Source of the DNA: a virus
Taxonomy: Duplodnaviria > Caudoviricetes
Virus record (IMG/VR): IMGVR_UViG_3300043388_000012
Coordinates: 1 to 64,000 of that record
Length of the DNA: 64,000 nt
Direction: 5' to 3' (one strand)
Part shown: in pieces, positions 38,257 through 64,000 of the stretch
How positions within the stretch are numbered: the stretch's first letter is position 1
Layout of the letters: every line of letters starts with the position of its first letter
Notes under the pieces: generated by a model
What the model saw: the letters and a program-made list of their open reading frames with translations, nothing else
Told to the model about the DNA's origin: nothing
Database searches by the model: none
Program-made: the position numbers and the translations under genes

Positions 38257-39560
38257 TGTTTCGAGAGCCGTGAGACGTTCATGGCGGCGAGCTCTGGGAT
38301 CGCGAGAGAGATATCGGGGAACGGACCCGGGTTGAGCTGGAGGTCTTCGAGGCTCCGCGCCGCTCGGACGTAGCGATCCATGATCTCCTTCGTGATGTGA
38401 CCGGTTCGATCTGTGATCCATCCATCGCTTTTGCCAGCTCGCTTAGCCCAAGTGACGAAGGTCGCTCGCAGGTCGTGAAAGCGCAACGCTTGGATCTTGT
38501 CTGTGTTGCTGAAGAGTATCCCTCGAGTGACACCAGCGCAGAGCAGATCCTTGCGAAGGGTCTCGGCTTCGAAGCGGCGTCTGCAGTGCAGTGTGGAGAT
38601 GACCGGCTTCGAGTCAGAGGGCCAGCCGCAGTATTCTCGCCATCTACGTAAGAGCTCGATGAGCGAACCGATTCCCGGTGACTCCGCGTCGCGTTGCACG
38701 AACATCACGGGATGATCGTTCTTGTTCACGAGACTCAGGATCGTTGAGTGGGTCAGGTCGATCGAGCTCCAGAGAAAGAACTCGATGCGGCTCTCTTCGT
38801 CGGCGGTAGCACGCGATCGGTTGCCGATTGGGATCGAGCCTTTGCGCAGACCCGTGTACGTAGCTAGCGCGTAGTACACGCGGCGTTCGATCGGGATGGC
38901 GATGCACATCAAGAGAGCAAGGAGCTCGACCGGGTAAAGGTAGCTGTAGAGCTTTGACGGGCCTTTGCTCGGGAGCAGGTCATCGCTGACAGGGTTGTCT
39001 TCGCGAAGCCGACCGGGGCGGATGGCAAGGTCGAAGAGCCGATGCGTGACCATGTACACTTGCCGCTTCGTGCCTTGCTTCGGGTTCTTCTTGTATCGAC
39101 GCTTGTAGGCGACCCATGCAGCTGCGAAGGCTCGCTCGACGTCCTGCTCAGTGACCGCGGAGACCGCCATGTCTCCGAGGTATGGGTACACGTGTTGTTC
39201 GAGGCGACGCACGTCATCTTCGGCAGACTTCTTGATCTTGAGTCGTTTCACTTCGCCGTATTTTTGATGCAGCTTGCCCGACGTCCATTCCTCTCCGAAT
39301 GCTCTGACCTTCTTTTCAGCTCGGAGCCGTTCGGGCATCTCTGCTGCGGGGTTTCGAAATGCAGTCGAGAACTTTTTCGCCGCAGCTTGAGCGGCATCCT
39401 TGTCTGCTTCCTTGTTCGTGTAGAGAGGTCGACCATCGTCGGCAAGCATCTCTTCGCGGATGCGGCTTCCGCGAACGCTGATCTTCGCAACGTAGCGGCC
39501 GCCCTTCGTAGGCAACCACTCGGCAGAGCCTGTCGCTGGCTTGGTTTCGCTTGGTTTCAT
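38253..39560 (-). CDS. int: Tyrosine integrase
   Basis: TGLRKGS (R), FHDLRATF (HxxR), TGH, MDRY (Y); likely start ATG 39560, downstream of the arm repeats. Confidence 0.93.
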   Translation of the reverse strand: MKPSETKPATGSAEWLPTKGGRYVAKISVRGSRIREEMLADDGRPLYTNKEADKDAAQAAAKKFSTAFRNPAAEMPERLRAEKKVRAFGEEWTSGKLHQKYGEVKRLKIKKSAEDDVRRLEQHVYPYLGDMAVSAVTEQDVERAFAAAWVAYKRRYKKNPKQGTKRQVYMVTHRLFDLAIRPGRLREDNPVSDDLLPSKGPSKLYSYLYPVELLALLMCIAIPIERRVYYALATYTGLRKGSIPIGNRSRATADEESRIEFFLWSSIDLTHSTILSLVNKNDHPVMFVQRDAESPGIGSLIELLRRWREYCGWPSDSKPVISTLHCRRRFEAETLRKDLLCAGVTRGILFSNTDKIQALRFHDLRATFVTWAKRAGKSDGWITDRTGHITKEIMDRYVRAARSLEDLQLNPGPFPDISLAIPELAAMNVSRLSKH

Positions 39561-55961: not shown

Positions 55962-56333
55962 ATGAGCAACGCGGTCAAGTTCCTCGGTACCTCGGATGAA
56001 GTCACAACCTGTGACTGCTGCGGCAAGGCGAATCTCAAGAGCACGGTCGCTCTGTCCATCGATGAAGCCGAGCCTGTGCATTTCGGCGTTACCTGTGCGG
56101 CGCGCGCGTTGAAGACTGGCGTAAACGAGGTCAAGCGCGGCACTGCTGCAGCCGACCGGGAGCGCGCAGAAGCGGAGCGCAAAGCACGCGCCGAAGCGGA
56201 GCGAGTTGCTTCGGCTCCTTGGTACGCCTTCCTTGCGGCTCACGGCATGGGCGACAACAACTTCAGCCGCATCGAGTCACTTGGCGGCTACAAGGCGGCG
56301 CGCGCGCGGTTCGAGGCGGAGCAGGGCAAGTAG
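55962..56333 (+). CDS. Cassette gene with Zn finger, predicted leaderless
   Basis: TTGCGT-17 nt-CACAAT-6 nt-ATG; CDCCG..HFGVTCA. Confidence 0.78.
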   Translation: MSNAVKFLGTSDEVTTCDCCGKANLKSTVALSIDEAEPVHFGVTCAARALKTGVNEVKRGTAAADRERAEAERKARAEAERVASAPWYAFLAAHGMGDNNFSRIESLGGYKAARARFEAEQGK

Positions 56334-56372
56334 GATACCGGCTCCAGAATCGGATCGGGGCGGCTTGCGATA

Positions 56373-56388
56373 GTCCCGCATCCGGGAC
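56373..56388 (+). promoter_or_regulatory. Motif B operator/promoter (perfect arms)
   Basis: GTCCCGCATCCGGGAC. Confidence 0.87.
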
Positions 56389-56399
56389 ACTATGACTGC

Positions 56400-56648
56400 A
56401 TGGACACAGCAAACACGGCGGAACGGTTGGCGGCGAAACTGACTCAGGAACTGAATCGGATCGTGGGCGACCGGGGCAAGGTTATCCACGTTGTCACCGA
56501 AGGTCTCGGGCATGGCTGGTGTGTGGTCTTCGACACGGAACATGCCGCGCTCAAGGCGTACCACACCTACAGGTACTCGAAGGGTATTACCTTCGGCGAG
56601 TCGAAGAACCTGAACGGCTGGTATATCTCGACTGAACCCACGGTGTAG
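56400..56648 (+). CDS. Cassette gene, predicted leaderless
   Basis: TTGCGA-17 nt-CACTAT-6 nt-ATG. Confidence 0.78.
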   Translation: MDTANTAERLAAKLTQELNRIVGDRGKVIHVVTEGLGHGWCVVFDTEHAALKAYHTYRYSKGITFGESKNLNGWYISTEPTV

Positions 56649-56676
56649 GCACAATCGGATCGGGGCCCTTGCATGG

Positions 56677-56692
56677 GTCCCGCATCCGGGAC
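56677..56692 (+). promoter_or_regulatory. Motif B operator/promoter (perfect arms)
   Basis: GTCCCGCATCCGGGAC. Confidence 0.87.
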
Positions 56693-56703
56693 ACAATCTA
56701 TTC

Positions 56704-56973
56704 ATGCAATCGAATCAAGCAACGCAGACGAAGACGAAGAAGCCGAGCAAAACTGCCATGAAGTTCCTCGGCCTTGCCGCCAAGGTCAACAGCTGGTCGC
56801 ACAAGCTCGAAGGTACGCACATCGCCAACATGAAAGATTGGTGGATTGAGCTTGAAGCCGCGGGTTACTGCGAGATCACGCACACGGTAGGTGCGATGTG
56901 GTGCAAGATTACGCCTGCCGGTCGCATCGCACTCGACGCGCACATCGCATCGGGCGGTAAGGTAGCGCGCTGA
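56704..56973 (+). CDS. Cassette gene, winged-helix-like, predicted leaderless
   Basis: TTGCAT-17 nt-CACAAT-6 nt-ATG; WIELEAAGYC...WCKITPAGRIAL. Confidence 0.75.
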   Translation: MQSNQATQTKTKKPSKTAMKFLGLAAKVNSWSHKLEGTHIANMKDWWIELEAAGYCEITHTVGAMWCKITPAGRIALDAHIASGGKVAR

Positions 56974-57041
56974 AATCCTAAGGGATGACGGGGGGAGCAG
57001 GACGGCTCCCCCAGAATCGGCATTGCTCGGCTTGCATATCT

Positions 57042-57057
57042 GTCCCCCATGCGGGAT
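57042..57057 (+). promoter_or_regulatory. Motif B operator/promoter
   Basis: GTCCCCCATGCGGGAT. Confidence 0.8.
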
Positions 57058-57066
57058 AGTTACTGC

Positions 57067-57492
57067 ATGGACAGCAACGCAGTACTGGTTGATGTGACTC
57101 GGTTCATGTACGCGGGAAACGCGAGTTTCACCGTAGTTTCCAACGCGACGGGCGTGCGCTTCACGTTCAAGGTTCGCGCCAAGGAAGTCGAAGGCGGCGC
57201 CACGCTTCACTTTGTGTCGGTCCTGACAGGCTCCGATAACGAGAGCGATTACACGTTCCTCGGAACCATCTTCAACCGCACGAGCTTCCGGCATGGCGCG
57301 CGATCGAGCATCGGAGTGGCAGCGCCATCGGCGAAGGCCTTTGCATGGTTCTTCCGCAATGTTGCAGGCGGTAAGCTGCAAGGCGCGACAGTGCATCACG
57401 AAGGCCGCTGCGGCCGCTGCGGCCGGAAGCTGACGGTTCCTGAGTCGATCCTGACCGGGCTAGGGCCCGAGTGCGCTGGTAAGGCGGCCTGA
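57067..57492 (+). CDS. Cassette gene with DUF6011-like Zn finger, predicted leaderless
   Basis: TTGCAT-17 nt-GATAGT-6 nt-ATG; CGRCGRKLTVPESILTGLGPEC. Confidence 0.75.
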   Translation: MDSNAVLVDVTRFMYAGNASFTVVSNATGVRFTFKVRAKEVEGGATLHFVSVLTGSDNESDYTFLGTIFNRTSFRHGARSSIGVAAPSAKAFAWFFRNVAGGKLQGATVHHEGRCGRCGRKLTVPESILTGLGPECAGKAA

Positions 57493-57621
57493 TAGCGAGC
57501 AACCCGGAGGCGGCAAGGAAGCCGCTTCCCAGCTCGCTGGAGCGGAGCAGGAGAGCGGGAAGCTAGCTCAACCTGTCCCGCAAATAGCGCGGCTCTCCGA
57601 GCCTGTGAGAGCTTCCGGTCA

Positions 57622-58329
57622 GTGGAGACAGCAACCCGATCGAAGCCGAAGCCGCGCACGAGACTGAAGCAGAGCTCGCCAAAATCGAGACCGCCGATCG
57701 AGCTGAAGTCGAGACCGCCGAAGCAGGCGAAGTCGAGACCGCCAAAAGCCGATCGGAGTGTATCCTCGAGGTTACACGTGCAGATGGTTCCGCTGAGTCA
57801 GCTCCTAGAGTGGCCAGGAAACCCTAAAGAGCACGACTTGGAGACTCTGGGGGAGAGTTTCGAGAGGTTCGGCTACGTCGAGCCTATCGTGTATGACGAA
57901 GGCAGTAAGCGGATCGTTGCTGGCCACGGTAGGCGCGAAAAGTTGCTGGCATGGAAGCAGAGCGGGAAAGCTCCCCCTGCTCGTGTCGTTGTGCGTAATG
58001 GCGAGTGGTATGTGCCTGTGCTGCGCGGAGTCTCGTTTCCAAACGCACACGAAGCCGAAGCGTACCTACTCACCAGCAACCAAGGTGTGATCCGAGGGGG
58101 GTACAACGCAACCGCGCTCGCAGAGATGCTCTCCAGACATGTGGATGATTCGAACGGTATCGGTTGGAGCTCCGACGAGATCAGCGACCTGATAGGCAAA
58201 GCGCAGAAGGCCGCTCAAACGTCTTACAACGAGTCGATCGCTCCGGATGAACCGGAAGCATACGAGCAACCGAAGCCCGTTACGCATACCTGTCAGAACT
58301 GCGGAGCGACGGTTGCCTGCAATCAATAG
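57622..58329 (+). CDS. ParB-N (ParB/Srx) domain protein; start may be 57784
   Basis: VPLSQLLEWPGNPKEH...FGYVEPIVYD...IVAGHGR. Confidence 0.8.
   Translation: METATRSKPKPRTRLKQSSPKSRPPIELKSRPPKQAKSRPPKADRSVSSRLHVQMVPLSQLLEWPGNPKEHDLETLGESFERFGYVEPIVYDEGSKRIVAGHGRREKLLAWKQSGKAPPARVVVRNGEWYVPVLRGVSFPNAHEAEAYLLTSNQGVIRGGYNATALAEMLSRHVDDSNGIGWSSDEISDLIGKAQKAAQTSYNESIAPDEPEAYEQPKPVTHTCQNCGATVACNQ
57685..57743 (+). repeat. TCGAGACCGCC x3 with a 24-nt period
   Basis: Copies at 57685, 57709 and 57733. Confidence 0.85.
57759..57776. promoter_or_regulatory. Motif A site (reverse orientation)
   Basis: TGTATCCTCGAGGTTACA, 8 nt before the ParB-domain ATG 57784. Confidence 0.85.
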
Positions 58330-58395
58330 CGCGGTGATCTCGAAGCTCAAAACGTGCAGGTGTTACGCTCCAGTCGTTTGGAGGCTTGAGAACCA

Positions 58396-58698
58396 ATGCG
58401 GCTTGAATCGTATCCACTCAACATTAAAGCGACAGCTGGCAACGGAACGTCGCAGCTAGTTCGCGACTTGCGTGAGAAATACGTTCAGATCGGCGGCGGA
58501 GCGTTCACAGGCTCGTTGCAAGTCGAAGTGAGCTTGAACGGCGGCACTGACTATTTCGCGTCGGGCGCTGCGATCACTGCTCCGATCGTGTTCAGCATCC
58601 CAGAGCCTGCGACGCATATCCGCATCGTTACCGGCTCGCTCTCGCTAGGTGCCCCGACCGCCTGTGTCAACGGCTACAACACCCGAACAGAGGGCTGA
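58396..58698 (+). CDS. Small beta-rich protein, possibly structural
   Basis: Coupled to the portal gene; LQVEVSLNGGTDYF. Confidence 0.55.
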   Translation: MRLESYPLNIKATAGNGTSQLVRDLREKYVQIGGGAFTGSLQVEVSLNGGTDYFASGAAITAPIVFSIPEPATHIRIVTGSLSLGAPTACVNGYNTRTEG

Positions 58699-60665
58699 TG
58701 GGAGCGGACGGCGAACAGTCTGCGGAGCAGCACATCGACGCTTCGCTACCGCGGGAGGTCATCGTCAAGGCATACGCGATCGGCAACGATCGGGTGAGCC
58801 TCGAGAAGGCAGATCAACAGTCAACGACTGACTCGATCTCGACCTTGTTCGGCGATGCGGCGATGAAGATCGATGCGATCGATCCTCCGTATGACCCGGA
58901 GCGGTTGTGTCGTGTGTACGAATACTCGAGTCTGTTGCGTCAGAACGTCGACGCTTACAAAACGAACATCGACGGCTTCGGCCATGTGTTCGAGCCTGTG
59001 ATTCAGCTCAAGGAAGCGGGAGCTCGCGACCTGGTCTCTGACGCGATCGAACTTGAGCGCGCTGAGAAAGCGAATACGGGCGCAGAAGGCGGGTTCGCCG
59101 AGTTTCAGCCGGTGACTCCAGATGACATCACTAAGAAGATCGAGGCGCTCAAGTACCTAATGCGCCTCGAAGAAGCTCGTATCAAGAGCTTCTTCCAATC
59201 GTGCGTTGCAGAAGAAAGCTTCACTTCACTTCGTCGTAAAACTCGAGAAGACATCGAGGTCACAGGTAACGGTTACTGGGAAGTGCTCCGCAACGATGCT
59301 GGCGGGATTTCGCAGTTCGTACACATGCCAGCTCGCTCGGTTCGAGTCACGAAGAACAAGGGCAACCCGGCTACCGTCTCGCAGCAGGTTCGTACAGGTC
59401 TCTTCACGTTCCGAACCGAGACCTATCGGCGGAAGTTTCGACGCTACGTGCAGACGAGCGGCGATGATTCGCGCTACTTCAAAGAGTTCGGAGACCCTGC
59501 AGTCGTATCGAGCAAGTCAGGCCGTGAGTTCGCAACACTCGAAGAACTGCAGGCCGCAGAAGAAGGCGTCGACGCTGCAAACGAGGTCTTTCACTTCAAG
59601 ATTCACAGCGTGAAGAGTGGCGCCTATGGCGTGCCTCGTTGGATCGGCAACCTGCTAAGTGTGCTCGGCTCTCGCAGTGCCGAAGAAGTGAATCTCGCGT
59701 ACTTCAACAACAAGAGTGTGCCTCCGATGGCCATTCTCGTCTCAGGCGGTAGGCTCGGCGAAGAGTCGGTCAAGCGCATCGAAGACTTCGTTGAGACGAA
59801 GCTCAAAGGCGCGAACAACTTTCATAAAATCCTCGTGATCGAGGCGGAGACTACAGCCGGCTCGCTCGGTATGGCAGAGAACACTGGGAGCATGCGCGTC
59901 GAGATCAAGACACTGACCGACGCGCAACTCAAAGATGGTTTGTTTCTGCAGTATGACGCGGCGAACATGGATAAGGTCGGCATGGGCTTTCGCCTGCCGC
60001 GCTTGCTCCGCGGCGACATCCGAGACTTCAACCGCGCATCCGCGGAAGCCGCGCTCGACTTCGCTGAGTCACAAGTCTTCGTGCCTGAACGCAACGACTT
60101 CGACTTCGCTATGAACCGGTTCATTCTGCCCTGCTTCGGGATCAAATATTGGACGTTCAAGTCCAATGGCCCGCGGCTCTCTGATGCGCAGAGTTGGGGT
60201 GAGATGATCACGAAGCTCACGACCGCGGGCATCCTCACTCCCGAAGACGCCCGTGAACTCGTAGGCAAGAAGGTGCTCGCCTCCGAGCTGGCGGTCATCG
60301 ATGCCGATTGGGTCAAGCAGCCACTCGCTCTGACCATCGCTGGCATCCAAGCCGACACAGTTCTCGATGGTGAGATCCCGATGATCGATGCAGCCGGTTC
60401 GGTTGCTGGCGGAGTGTCGGCAGATCCGAACGTCGGCATATCGATCGGCGATCCGAGCCTCGCGATGAAGGCGAAGTCGATTCTCGCTCGCAAGGCGAAG
60501 TCGCTCCTGAAGCTCCGCGATGCCTTCATGAAGGAAGAAGCGACTGCAGCCGTCGCATCGTACAAGCGCGAACGTGCAGCCGAGCAGGCGGCGAGCGGAG
60601 AGCTCGTGATCAAGATGTCTGCGGCTGACATCGCATCTCAGCTCGGTATCACGAAGGTCTCGTAA
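58698..60665 (+). CDS. Phage portal protein (PBSX-like)
   Basis: GNGYWEVLR, YGVPRWIG, YFNNKSVPPMAILVSGG, FRLPRLLRGD, FNRASAEAA. Confidence 0.88.
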   Translation: MGADGEQSAEQHIDASLPREVIVKAYAIGNDRVSLEKADQQSTTDSISTLFGDAAMKIDAIDPPYDPERLCRVYEYSSLLRQNVDAYKTNIDGFGHVFEPVIQLKEAGARDLVSDAIELERAEKANTGAEGGFAEFQPVTPDDITKKIEALKYLMRLEEARIKSFFQSCVAEESFTSLRRKTREDIEVTGNGYWEVLRNDAGGISQFVHMPARSVRVTKNKGNPATVSQQVRTGLFTFRTETYRRKFRRYVQTSGDDSRYFKEFGDPAVVSSKSGREFATLEELQAAEEGVDAANEVFHFKIHSVKSGAYGVPRWIGNLLSVLGSRSAEEVNLAYFNNKSVPPMAILVSGGRLGEESVKRIEDFVETKLKGANNFHKILVIEAETTAGSLGMAENTGSMRVEIKTLTDAQLKDGLFLQYDAANMDKVGMGFRLPRLLRGDIRDFNRASAEAALDFAESQVFVPERNDFDFAMNRFILPCFGIKYWTFKSNGPRLSDAQSWGEMITKLTTAGILTPEDARELVGKKVLASELAVIDADWVKQPLALTIAGIQADTVLDGEIPMIDAAGSVAGGVSADPNVGISIGDPSLAMKAKSILARKAKSLLKLRDAFMKEEATAAVASYKRERAAEQAASGELVIKMSAADIASQLGITKVS

Positions 60666-62773
60666 TGCGCCGGGCGGTCACGCTCGCAGACGGCATCGTA
60701 GCGGCCGAAGAACTCGCTTCGGCGTTGCTCGGCTTCTCGGTCCACAAGGCAGTCGACCCCCTCTCTCCGAGTGGGTTTCTGCTCATCGGGCAGAAGGTAG
60801 CTAAGCAACTCGAGAACGCGGTCAAAGGCGCAGAAGCGGCAGCTGTCGCGGATGTGATTCACAAGCTCGGCTTCGATTGGACGAAGCTCTCCCCCGATGC
60901 GGCAACCGCTGCGATGAACGCCGTAAACAAGGCGATCGGCGATGCCTACGCGAAGCACATCCTACCGAAAATCAACGAGACGCTAGAGGTCGAAGGCCCG
61001 AAGGTGATGGGCGCGACGAAGAAGTCGGTCAAGGTACACCAGAAGATCGAGATCTCCGGAGACCTTGCACAGCGTGATCTCGTCGCAGAAAAGGCGATCC
61101 GCAACTCACACGTGAACTTCATCCGAGACTCAGCCGGAGACCGCGCGGCTACGCTCTCGAAGAAGGCTCGTTCGATGGTCGCTACTGGTCTCGGGCAGGG
61201 GCTAGGCACAGACCAGATCGGGAAGGACTTGCATGCATTCTTCCGGGAGAACATCCCGCGACCGCCGTCTTACTGGCGCACGGTCGCTGATTCGTTCGTC
61301 GGCAGGGCCCGAGCTTCTTCGCAGATCTACGCATACGAGACCGCGAAGATTCAGAGCTTCGAAGTCGTCGCTGTCATCGATGAAGTGACTACAGACCAAT
61401 GTCGATTCATGAACGGCAAAGTCTTCTCGGTCACGGTTGGGCGAGCGCTCGTAGAGACGATGAACGCGCTCGAAGAGCCGGAGGATGTGAAGTATGCCGC
61501 TCCGTGGATTCGTAAGGGCAGAGACGATGCAGGCAACATGCGGCTCTTCGTGCCGCACTCGAACGGCACAACGACAACCATCGCGAAGATCGATCGTAGC
61601 GGCGTAGGGCGCGCCGACGATGCAGGCAAGTTCAGCGGCGGCAAGGATGCAGACGGGCTAGGCAAGCTTGGCGTCTCGTTGCCGCCCTACCATGGCCGAT
61701 GCCGCACGGTGATCGTTGCTGCGGCGGAGACGTTCGAGCAAGGCGCTCCGGTGATGGTACCGGGAGCTGACCTAGAGCCGACTCCTGCTGCAGAGCCGGT
61801 AGCAACTCATTCGGCGGAGCCGGAGACTCTGGAGGTCAACCAACCAGCTGCTTGGATGACGGCAGAGACTCTCGACGTCACAGAAGAGATCGCTCTAAAA
61901 GGCAGTGCTACCGATGTTCGTCGGCTCGTTGTTCAGGACGGCGAAGCCAAACACAAAGCTATTTGGAAGTCCGTTACAGGAGAGTTCCGACACGAAAACG
62001 AGTGGGGCAGACCTCTGCGAGATGGTGTCAAAGCAGGCACTTTCTATCAGCGCGAAGCAGCTGCGTTCGACTTTGACTCCCTGCTTGGCGGAGAGACGGT
62101 CATCCCTATGACCGTTGCTCGCAACCGAGGAACTATGCCGGGAAGCTTGCAGGCGTTCGTACCGAAGTCGAAGACGACTAACCTGACTGATTGGAAGGCT
62201 GATGGAGGGGGCACTGTTGCGTATACTCCTGACGATAAGCTAGCCCTCAAGCTCGCCGCAGACCCTGACGTTCGTCGACAGTTTCTGCTCGATGCGCTGA
62301 TGGCAAACGATGACCGGCATGGAGCGAATACCCTCTGGCGAAAAGTCGGCGATGCGATGAAGCCGGTCGCGATCGACAACGGGTTAGCGTTTCCCGAGAA
62401 GCCTTGCCGCTTCTTGTTCGCGATTGAGAATCGAGGATTTGAGCAAGCCCTCCTGCGGCTCGATGCACACAGCATCGAGTTACTCAACAAGTTGAGCCTC
62501 GAAGACGTCGCAGCCGTTCTCAAAAAGTACGAAGGGATTACAGAAACCCAGATCAGCGCCACGCTTGGTCGAATCAAGGCACTGCAGAAGGATCCTCAAC
62601 AACTACATAAGGGTATGACCGAACACGAAGCCCCCGCACAGGTCATGAGCATGTGGTTGAAAATGACACTCGAAGATCGTGCTATAACGAAAGGACCGAT
62701 CGGCGATTACAGCGCATGGGCTGTTCTCTCCGCGGATGACCTGGCAGAGATTGCGAAGCTGTCCAAGCGATGA
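60665..62773 (+). CDS. MuF/SPP1 gp7 minor head protein fused to a PI3/4-kinase/HipA-like domain
   Basis: AVIDEVTTDQCRFMNGKVF and PPYHGRCRT (MuF); then KAIWK, REAAAF, GSLQAF, NDDRHGAN, AIDNGLAFP. Confidence 0.82.
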   Translation: MRRAVTLADGIVAAEELASALLGFSVHKAVDPLSPSGFLLIGQKVAKQLENAVKGAEAAAVADVIHKLGFDWTKLSPDAATAAMNAVNKAIGDAYAKHILPKINETLEVEGPKVMGATKKSVKVHQKIEISGDLAQRDLVAEKAIRNSHVNFIRDSAGDRAATLSKKARSMVATGLGQGLGTDQIGKDLHAFFRENIPRPPSYWRTVADSFVGRARASSQIYAYETAKIQSFEVVAVIDEVTTDQCRFMNGKVFSVTVGRALVETMNALEEPEDVKYAAPWIRKGRDDAGNMRLFVPHSNGTTTTIAKIDRSGVGRADDAGKFSGGKDADGLGKLGVSLPPYHGRCRTVIVAAAETFEQGAPVMVPGADLEPTPAAEPVATHSAEPETLEVNQPAAWMTAETLDVTEEIALKGSATDVRRLVVQDGEAKHKAIWKSVTGEFRHENEWGRPLRDGVKAGTFYQREAAAFDFDSLLGGETVIPMTVARNRGTMPGSLQAFVPKSKTTNLTDWKADGGGTVAYTPDDKLALKLAADPDVRRQFLLDALMANDDRHGANTLWRKVGDAMKPVAIDNGLAFPEKPCRFLFAIENRGFEQALLRLDAHSIELLNKLSLEDVAAVLKKYEGITETQISATLGRIKALQKDPQQLHKGMTEHEAPAQVMSMWLKMTLEDRAITKGPIGDYSAWAVLSADDLAEIAKLSKR

Positions 62774-63024
62774 AGCGCCTAGTGCAAGTTGATCCAGAGA
62801 CGTACAAACCCGCGGGAGTGGTCTGCACGTTCGAGCTTGTCGGAGACAAGGTCGAAGTAGTCCCTGCGGATGGTCTCGACCGATGGCGGAACGTCGCAGA
62901 GCTCGTGTTGGGGAGCGAGATCCTGACTCCGAGCGACGGCAAGGCGTATTACGATGCTCTCGGATCGATTCGCGGCTCCTATTTTTTCGTCGAAGAAGTT
63001 CCGGAGACCGAAGCAACCAAGTAG
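62770..63024 (+). CDS. Small acidic protein
   Basis: ATGA-coupled to the MuF-kinase gene. Confidence 0.6.
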   Translation: MKRLVQVDPETYKPAGVVCTFELVGDKVEVVPADGLDRWRNVAELVLGSEILTPSDGKAYYDALGSIRGSYFFVEEVPETEATK

Positions 63025-63036
63025 TTTCTCCCTGCT

Positions 63037-63327
63037 ATGGCAGGCGAACTACTCGAGTTGATCACGAGTCACGATCCGTCGCTCAAGCAGCGCGTGTTGA
63101 CACGCGTGCAGCACGTTATCGCTGACTCGTTTAGAGCAGACAAGTCACGCCGCACAACCTCCGAGGTAGTGCGGCGGTTCAAGATCCTCGAGACCTTGAT
63201 GCGAGAGCTCCGGCATGACTACGGATGGGCGTTCGAACGGATTCTCGACGCTATGCCTGTAGCGCTCCGATGCAAGCTCGACGGCATCCCGTGGGCGCCC
63301 GATTTGAAGCGCAACTCTTGGGTGTAA
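63037..63327 (+). CDS. Hypothetical protein
   Basis: Its stop codon lies inside motif A at 63323. Confidence 0.6.
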   Translation: MAGELLELITSHDPSLKQRVLTRVQHVIADSFRADKSRRTTSEVVRRFKILETLMRELRHDYGWAFERILDAMPVALRCKLDGIPWAPDLKRNSWV

Positions 63328-63340
63328 CCTCGAGGATACA
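63323..63340. promoter_or_regulatory. Motif A site
   Basis: TGTAACCTCGAGGATACA, overlaps the stop at 63327. Confidence 0.85.
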
Positions 63341-63409
63341 ATCTGGAGCTGCACGGCTTATTGCGATCTGTATGTTGGCCAGCGTCTACTTTGGGCAACA
63401 GGAGATCCG

Positions 63410-64000
63410 ATGCCAACTCTTACCGAACAAGTCGATGCAGCGAACGCGAAGCTCGATGCGCTTCTAGCCGCTCCGGCTACCGTCGTTGCTCCGACTGCCG
63501 AACCGGTCGAGATGACCGCGGCCGAAGCTCTGCTTCACATCACTGACGAACTGTCCAAGGGTGTTTCGACAGAGCGAGCAACCTATCTCAAGGGCATCGT
63601 GACTGAGATCGCGAAGAACAACTTCGAGTCCCATGGCGAAGGCGCCATGCCGATCAAAATCGTCAACGACCCGACGCAACTCAAGCCGGGCACGGCTCCG
63701 ATCGCTCCGGTTCAGTCTCTGACGTCAGCGACTCCGGAGAGCAACTTCGCAGACAACATGAGCGCGGTTCAGAAGGTCGCTCTCATCGTGAAGATGCTCA
63801 CTGACAAGGAAGAGCTCAAGGCTCGGATCGCGAAGTCAGCGCTCACTGAAAAGATGGCTCAGATCAAGTCGATGTTCGGTCTGACCGATACCGACATGAA
63901 AGACAGCTACGACGTTCGTTGGAAGGTCGGAGACCTGATCTCTCTGCTGCAGGAAGCGATCAAGATGGAGAACTTCGTTAGCGGAGGCGGCGGCAAAGAC
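63410..64000 (+). CDS. Partial gene running off the window (head module, possibly scaffold-like)
   Basis: CAGGAG RBS, ATG 63410, open to the end: MPTLTEQVDAANAKLDALL... Confidence 0.7.
   Translation, partial: MPTLTEQVDAANAKLDALLAAPATVVAPTAEPVEMTAAEALLHITDELSKGVSTERATYLKGIVTEIAKNNFESHGEGAMPIKIVNDPTQLKPGTAPIAPVQSLTSATPESNFADNMSAVQKVALIVKMLTDKEELKARIAKSALTEKMAQIKSMFGLTDTDMKDSYDVRWKVGDLISLLQEAIKMENFVSGGGGKD

Follow-up and report, generated by a model that had tools for sequence, protein, structure and literature searches.

Introduction

What would a tailed phage do with a kinase that is built into one of its own head proteins, and what would protect the cell in which such a protein is made? The question is raised by the IMG/VR record IMGVR_UViG_3300043388_000012, in which a minor head protein of the MuF type carries a kinase domain at its C-terminus. 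The window analyzed here is the first 64 kb (positions 1 to 64,000) of this 82,209-bp record, which comes from an uncultured virus (Duplodnaviria; Caudoviricetes). The open reading frame (ORF) in question, the MuF-kinase ORF, has exactly the coordinates given by an initial annotation made from the sequence alone, and its product begins with a module of the gp7/MuF type, continues with a linker rich in Pro, Ala and Glu, and ends in a kinase domain. Taken as a whole, it probably represents a new, kinase type of cargo within the known class of MuF effectors (polymorphic toxins), with a small downstream partner acting as inhibitor or immunity protein.

Enzymes fused to MuF are thought to be injected with the phage DNA, and for very few of them are the activity and the protection of the producer cell known. 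If the cargo is a kinase, host physiology would be rewired by phosphorylation before phage transcription. If our reading of the partner is true, it would be a ready-made specific kinase inhibitor to study. The protein and the partner gene divide as follows.

60665-62773, plus strand: MuF-kinase ORF, 702 amino acids (aa)
60665..61774, plus strand: MuF/SPP1 gp7-type minor head module, residues 1-370, matched by TIGR01641 and PHROG 13868
61775..61861, plus strand: Pro/Ala/Glu-rich linker, about residues 371-399, where relatives diverge
61862..62770, plus strand: kinase domain resembling type II phosphatidylinositol 4-kinases (PI4KII), residues 400-702
61967-61969, 62054-62056, 62312-62329 and 62372-62383: kinase key residues, respectively K435, E464, the catalytic loop DRHGAN and the metal-binding IDNG
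62770-63024, plus strand: partner gene, 84 aa, acidic (pI 4.5), sharing an ATGA overlap with the kinase stop

The Kinase Domain and Its Relatives

The first step is to establish what the C-terminal domain is. Scanned against 1.84 billion cluster representatives, residues 400-702 found relatives in 399 clusters at E<=1e-3 and in 82 at E<=1e-10, and in most of these the kinase domain lies at the C-terminus of proteins of 600-900 aa. The four motifs named by the initial annotation are all in place, namely K435 (the last K of KAIWK), R463/E464 (in REAAA), D550-R551-H552-x-x-N555 and I570-D571-N-G573. Alignments of 86-150 cluster representatives with less than 50% mutual identity show each of them to be either invariant or conserved at 90% or more. 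The same degree of conservation is seen at P481, T483, G493, S494, Q496, D543 and R636, so that the hinge motif GSxQ is conserved beside the four catalytic motifs. DRHxxN, followed about 20 residues on by ID[NH]G, recurs in nearly all of the best 150 of the 399 relatives. Judged from these alignments, the conservation of the motifs is far beyond chance, and the catalytic positions being kept across such wide divergence argues for an active enzyme.

The predicted fold leads to the same family. The AlphaFold2 model of the kinase, built on a 43-sequence alignment, has a mean predicted local distance difference test (pLDDT) score of 92.3 and a predicted template modeling (pTM) score of 0.92, and its best Foldseek matches in the PDB are human PI4KIIalpha/beta (E 1e-8). 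When the family profile is run against PDB sequences, PI4KIIalpha leads at E 1.1e-19, followed by Fam20C at E 5e-10. The catalytic residues of PI3/4-kinases are present (the beta3 Lys K435, D550/R551/N555 and the metal-binding D571) and align with the PI4KIIalpha motifs. Profile and model together point to a catalytically competent member of the PI3/4-kinase/HipA/Fam20 superfamily that is closest to type II PI 4-kinases. The initial annotation had proposed the PI3/4-kinase/HipA superfamily; the superfamily and the intact catalytic residues hold, but the nearest relative is a type II PI 4-kinase and not HipA. HipA proper was rejected as an assignment, as no acceptable hidden Markov model (HMM) match to the HipA C-terminal kinase domain (PF07804/PF20613) was obtained and PI4KII is much closer.

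With PI4KIIalpha/beta (PDB 4hnd, 4pla, 4wtv, 8a5x) the phage domain shares VFKP around the beta3 Lys, GSxQxFV in the hinge, NtDRxxxN in the catalytic loop, and an identical metal-binding AIDNGLAFP. Unlike PI4KII, it has about 300 residues instead of about 350-390 (roughly 50-90 fewer) and no long inserts, it shows neither the CCPCC palmitoylation motif nor a comparable Cys cluster in residues 400-702, it reads DRHxxN where PI4KII has DRGNDN, and it is fused to a phage head protein. Among curated bacterial HMMs the closest is that of the SCO1664 family (TIGR03843), an uncharacterized PI3/4-kinase-like group, at E 6.8e-13 over residues 403-644 and model positions 6-236 of 253. The phage protein differs from it by its head-operon context and by the fusion, and membership in SCO1664 was rejected, the score being 48.5 bits against an equivalog cut-off of 172.4. 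No prokaryotic or viral family encountered in this analysis stands closer to type II PI 4-kinases than this one, and its 399 clusters bear on the origin of these eukaryotic enzymes.

The structural neighbors are mixed in their substrates, comprising the protein kinases CtkA, HipA, Fam20C, CotH and PIKKs, the sugar kinase Fam20B and lipid kinases, and the fold therefore does not reveal the substrate class. Since those neighbors that are prokaryotic kinases (CtkA, HipA/HipT, CotH) act on proteins, we slightly favor a protein Ser/Thr as the target over a hydroxyl of a lipid or sugar. Phosphatidylinositol itself is an unlikely substrate if the host lacks that lipid.

The MuF Module and the Linker

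The N-terminal half is a minor head module, as had been proposed. TIGR01641 (phageSPP1_gp7) matches residues 173-256 with 42.5 bits, above its cut-off of 39.65, and PHROG 13868 spans residues 8-352 at E 9e-50, with weaker matches, at about 1e-6, to the minor-head PHROGs 115 and 9907. A search of 5.8 billion proteins gave ten homologues. In their alignment, conservation runs through every member from residue 1 to about residue 370, whatever the C-terminus, and then ends. The end of the module is marked by a PPxHxxCR motif and a junction motif, VMVPGADLE. Related proteins diverge in the linker that follows, which therefore marks the point of swapping.

By analogy with its family, the MuF module most likely docks the protein to the portal inside the capsid. 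As summarized in PMC10083569 and PMC5512222, gp7 is bound to the portal, and infection is efficient only when it is present.

The junction motif (window 61754-61780, residues 364-372) is kept irrespective of the C-terminal domain, with P366 invariant and M364, G367, A368 and D369 at least 90% conserved. Two conceivable roles for it are that of a site of recombination, comparable to the VENN motif in CdiA toxins, and that of a site processed by a protease.

The Partner Gene

The 84-aa gene that overlaps the kinase stop belongs to a small family with the motif P-x-D-G-x-x-[YF]-[YFL]-D-x-L...[YF]-x-x-S. Five copies served as the seed of an HMM, which was then run iteratively on every ORF of the collected loci. 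Of 54 distinct viral kinase ORFs that could be evaluated, 35 have a partner homologue no more than a few nt downstream, and 47 of the 49 confident partner matches adjoin a kinase ORF. The link is to the kinase and not to MuF as such, since the partner is present in five of six evaluable kinase-bearing MuF loci against none of 35 kinase-free MuF loci (Fisher p 8e-6). A further 19 of 50 kinase ORFs on metagenome contigs outside the viral set also have it, so that at the sensitivity used its prevalence is about two thirds at viral loci and about two fifths at the additional metagenome loci. The 82-kb genome has a single copy of the kinase and a single copy of the partner.

In two loci the partner is inverted (L003:7241-7495, minus strand, and L115), convergent with the kinase gene and overlapping its 3' end, still adjacent. 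The linkage is therefore independent of translational coupling, and independent expression is possible. At L073:2117-4869, L087:1788-4767, L095 and L100, two or three stand-alone kinase ORFs of 375-550 aa are arrayed in tandem; tandem kinase-partner units are seen in L073 and L087/L088, each ORF in L073 and L087 having its own partner gene. These arrays resemble orphan toxin-immunity cassettes.

The partner model is confident (pLDDT 92.4, pTM 0.80), and its searches gave little. Pfam had no match for any of 31 partner homologues at E<=10, the ESM Atlas no usable match, and Foldseek against the PDB nothing at E<=1e-3. The partner profile against PDB sequences gave chance-level matches only, with PdxS best at E 0.029 and no Hip protein. 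The partner is a putative inhibitor or immunity protein of the kinase, by analogy with the small genes beside other MuF toxins. Neither it nor the cassette described below figured in the initial annotation, and both bear on the mechanism because the producer cell probably needs protection from the kinase.

Cargo Variation and Cassette Exchange

The toxin-like variation of MuF C-termini that the initial annotation had mentioned is seen directly among the ten homologues. Five of those sharing the MuF N-terminus end in a kinase (P0002-P0004, P0006 and P0011), while P0010 ends in a GNAT acetyltransferase, P0005 and P0009 in a HExxH-like domain, P0008 in a weak region resembling an ADP-ribosyltransferase (ART), and P0007 in no domain at all.

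The same exchange is visible at the level of whole loci, where the flanks stay and the cassette changes. Its downstream edge is the following conserved gene.

63037..63327, plus strand: orf96, a 96-aa gene

Viral loci L002 and L003 are syntenic with the window, in the order portal, MuF, kinase, small ORF, orf96 and a 250-aa gene, orf250. Locus L004 retains the portal (64% identity), the MuF module (56%), orf96 (59%) and orf250 (39%), and in between, both its C-terminus and the 95-aa ORF that comes next are unrelated to their counterparts in the window. In L005 a 354-aa MuF protein has neither the extension nor the small ORF, and the orf96 homologue comes directly next. Thus, orf96 is kept whether the relative has the kinase, another C-terminal domain or none, at tblastn identities of 72% (L002), 62% (L003), 59% (L004) and 43% (L005). 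The kinase domain and the 84-aa gene form one mobile cassette, which in related phages is exchanged for other units of cargo plus small ORF or is absent. In its sequence features, this pattern is the signature of the MuF-effector/polymorphic-toxin class (PMC5576092, PMC5512222).

Beyond these close relatives, MuF loci carry ART, zeta-toxin, methyltransferase or Acb1 (anti-CBASS) domains. A survey of MuF-kinase fusions, which had been suggested earlier, found Phage_Mu_F in 22 of the 54 distinct kinase ORFs on viral contigs; other viral kinase ORFs are fused to Portal_Mu, the polyvalent-protein domain LPD1, 2H phosphoesterase or ART. A PT-HINT pretoxin domain precedes the kinase in one of 86 representatives.

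Several individual loci illustrate the range of arrangements. MuF proteins were seen with an Acb1 anti-CBASS domain N-terminal to MuF (L034:3032-5032; PF23474, E 6e-32), with a zeta-toxin kinase (L036:2594-4435; E 2e-19) and with an ADP-ribosyltransferase (L032:1478-3718; E 2e-10). The end domain of P0005 and P0009 has no Pfam match and contains a HExxH-like motif, ALHE-x-GHA, and a common C-terminal tail; it may be a zincin-type protease cargo. At L028:4431-7406, a contig shared with L074, a 992-aa kinase protein has a weak Intein_splicing match (E 1.4e-5, residues 374-630) that separates the N-terminal part from the kinase, and the 76-aa ORF downstream of it is not matched by the partner HMM.

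A Proposed Mechanism and Its Alternatives

How, then, might the parts work together? In the most likely mechanism, the fusion protein and the small partner would be made together late in infection. The partner would bind the kinase and hold it inactive in the producing cell, comparable to a polymorphic-toxin immunity protein or to the HipS antitoxin, and the MuF module would bring a small number of kinase copies into the head. When the particle then infects a new cell, the kinase would enter with the DNA but without its partner, and would phosphorylate a host component in favor of the phage. Portal-mediated packaging and co-injection are taken from what is described for the family (PMC5512222, PMC10083569), and the neutralization of the kinase in the producing cell by a partner that is then left behind would follow the model of toxin-immunity and HipT-HipS pairs. 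An action of the delivered kinase ahead of any phage gene expression, as the initial annotation proposed, would agree with these published accounts of gp7/MuF proteins.

Several points weigh against this reading of an injected effector with its inhibitor. Two Pfam models fall short of their cut-offs in the protein itself, Phage_Mu_F (PF04233) with only 18.1 bits against 29.6, and PI3_PI4_kinase (PF00454) with only 19.1 bits against 27.1 over the catalytic segment (residues 541-586). Relatives do match both, the distant homologue P0011 reaching 32.0 bits for Phage_Mu_F, which passes the cut-off, and 37.7 bits for PI3_PI4_kinase, the latter being matched by 51 of 54 viral relatives at E<=0.01. 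The partner goes undetected at about one third of the viral kinase ORFs and at a larger share of the metagenome ones, with the misses concentrated among the most divergent kinases; there it may have been overlooked or may not be universal. As the partner has no known family, its role as inhibitor rests on analogy, and translational coupling would equally suit an assembly chaperone or a stoichiometric subunit. Two scans of genome-collection contigs found no prophage relatives. Finally, no host could be assigned, and so no target of the kinase can be proposed.

The alternatives differ in where the kinase would act and in what the partner would be. In the model of Jamet et al. the protein would be an interbacterial polymorphic toxin, a weapon of lysogens whose induced particles deliver a growth-arresting kinase to competitors while the small gene shields sibling lysogens. 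The combination of MuF, variable C-terminus and small downstream ORF fits the published definition (PMC5576092), one kinase-domain relative stands behind a PT-HINT pretoxin domain, the opposite-strand partner in L003/L115 could be expressed apart from the late operon, and there is a weak integrase-like ORF at 38358-38669. That integrase match is below threshold, however (22.4 against 27.1 bits), the genome looks like that of a large myovirus with its own replication genes and without prophage relatives found, and a partner that is mostly coupled to a late gene has no obvious expression in a lysogen; we hold this version to be unlikely. The kinase could instead serve assembly, phosphorylating phage structural or DNA-associated proteins in the producing cell or the prohead, much as structural substrates are phosphorylated by CotH and Fam20C, with the partner as a regulatory subunit. 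Its place in the head operon and its tight coupling to the neighbors would agree with such a function, but close relatives drop the domain or swap in GNAT, HExxH or ART with the same head genes, which does not fit a core assembly role, and polyvalent and pretoxin proteins contain the domain as well. An assembly kinase consequently appears quite improbable.

The partner may also be a required piece of the enzyme instead of an inhibitor, either as an N-subdomain split off from it, as in HipA, or as an adaptor for its substrate; it would be co-packaged and would activate or target the kinase. Coupling implies a 1:1 production, which would suit this arrangement; on the other hand, HipS is an antitoxin in the split systems that have been studied (PMC10627512, PMC9325769), and modeling the kinase by itself already gives a complete and confident structure, which leaves little probability for this reading. 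There is hardly any reason to believe in a non-catalytic scaffold (pseudokinase) kept for binding, or in a recent and functionless chance fusion. The sub-threshold Pfam score would agree with either, but all catalytic residues are kept here and in nearly all of the best 150 relatives, and the pseudokinase reading was rejected on this conservation; the fusion, moreover, recurs across many phage lineages, as the count of 22 in 54 viral kinase ORFs with Phage_Mu_F indicates.

A Possible HipS Link of the Partner

The reading of a kinase with its inhibitor has a bolder extension, in which the partner is a HipS-type detached N-subdomain. HipS is the detached N-subdomain 1 of HipA and acts as an antitoxin by inserting residues into the active site of the HipT kinase (PMC10627512, PMC9325769), and the gene order of kinase followed by a HipS-like gene is known in the HipJ and HipI-N families (PMC8262856). 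In an exhaustive structural comparison of the partner with 48,161 chains there was no strong match, and the top four were HipS and the HipA N-subdomain. At the sequence level, Couple_hipA (PF13657) matched none of the 31 partner homologues and nothing in the genome. Comparison by hhalign with E. coli HipA-N gave E 0.13 for a single sequence and 0.075 for a 23-sequence profile, neither of them significant, and aligned just 8-13 columns, [YF][YFL]D-x-L against FFDNLL; the profile is shallow because the homologue search gave almost only truncated E. coli HipA fragments. A relationship of the partner to HipS is thus conceivable and rather doubtful. Equally tentative is the full extension, according to which the locus would be a split kinase toxin-antitoxin pair with its MuF-tethered toxin packaged and injected and its antitoxin left behind, and the phage clade would be the prokaryotic sister of the eukaryotic type II PI 4-kinases. 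If this were true, HipA-type toxin-antitoxin kinases, phage effectors and a eukaryotic lipid-kinase family would be linked.

Comparison with Known Systems

MuF toxins with downstream immunity genes have been published (PMC5576092), including Apk2/BcTis1 (PMC10083569). The present locus shares with these polymorphic toxins and effectors (Jamet et al. 2017, PMC5576092; Iyer et al. 2017, PMC5512222; Apk2-BcTis1-Aph1, PMC10083569) an N-terminal MuF/gp7 module encoded beside the portal, a variable enzymatic domain past the linker (kinase, GNAT, HExxH-like, ART-like or absent), and a small ORF of less than 150 aa (here 84 aa) immediately downstream, which is specific to the kinase cargo and is swapped with it as a unit. 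It differs from the published MuF cargos in being a PI4KII-like kinase. The word "kinase" does not occur in Jamet 2017 (PMC5576092); Iyer 2017 (PMC5512222) treats a different, C-lobe-less clade of Ser/Thr/Tyr kinases in polyvalent proteins, as well as the P-loop zeta-toxin kinase, and the only kinase cargo listed by Zhang 2012 is a lantibiotic-type "Tox-peptide kinase". The cargos linked to MuF or toxins in the literature are ARTs, (p)ppApp synthetases, nucleases, 2H phosphoesterases, zeta-toxin P-loop kinases and C-lobe-less Ser/Thr/Tyr kinases, and the literature searched on such cargos makes no mention of a PI3/4-kinase type or of this partner family. Precomputed Pfam annotations already show the MuF and PI3/4-kinase domains together, so that databases contain the fusion as such, and what is new is the cargo type within a known class.

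HipA and HipT-HipS (PDB 2wiu, 7ab3, 7vkb; PMC10627512, PMC9325769, PMC8262856) offer the likeness of a kinase paired with a small adjacent protein, the Hip enzymes being growth-control kinases. Unlike them, the phage kinase is much closer to PI4KII and is accompanied by no HipB-type DNA-binding repressor, and it is part of what is by family a MuF-type head protein and not of a chromosomal toxin-antitoxin module. Phage enzymes that modify the host at or just after DNA entry, as is proposed here, are represented by the T4 Alt ADP-ribosyltransferase and the T7 kinase gp0.7, as summarized in PMC5512222. The T7 enzyme, in contrast, is expressed early, is not packaged and is a kinase of a different type, whereas Alt is an ADP-ribosyltransferase that is packaged by a different route.

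Source Genome, Host and Head Operon

The window has a G+C content of about 59%, and CheckV estimates the record to be about 75% complete. The genome resembles that of a large myovirus (at least 82 kb at this completeness) with its own replication genes. No tRNA genes were found in the 64-kb window. Megablast of positions 56000-64000 against phages gave no match, tblastn with the MuF-kinase protein matched solely the ParB-like region of Stenotrophomonas phages at 25% identity, and the tail sheath has its best identities, 28-29%, with Bacillus and Streptomyces phages; with phage similarity this weak, no host was assigned.

The integrase- or tyrosine-recombinase-like match at 38358-38669 lies on the minus strand within a 461-aa ORF (E 3.9e-6) and is the only hint of a temperate lifestyle.

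The MuF-kinase gene stands in the canonical MuF/gp7 position of a myovirus head operon, directly behind the portal gene.

58698..60665, plus strand: portal protein gene, 655 aa (Pfam Phage_portal, E 2.6e-17, 63.4 bits against a cut-off of 39.1; PHROG 12, E 4.5e-38)

The portal stop and the MuF-kinase ATG share 1 nt. On the same strand, the gene is followed 3' by the two small genes, the 250-aa gene, a head-maturation protease, a scaffold-like gene and the major head protein (PHROG 1623, E 6e-97), and then by a decoration protein, a head-tail adaptor and the tail sheath. A scan of 57400-64000 for promoters and terminators gave nothing beyond the shuffled expectation. No terminase gene was seen between the portal and the genes upstream of it, which are a DUF6011 protein gene at 57049-57492 (E 3.5e-14) and, just upstream of the portal, a ParB-like (nuclease/partition) gene at 57622-58329 (PHROG 620, E 2.5e-22).

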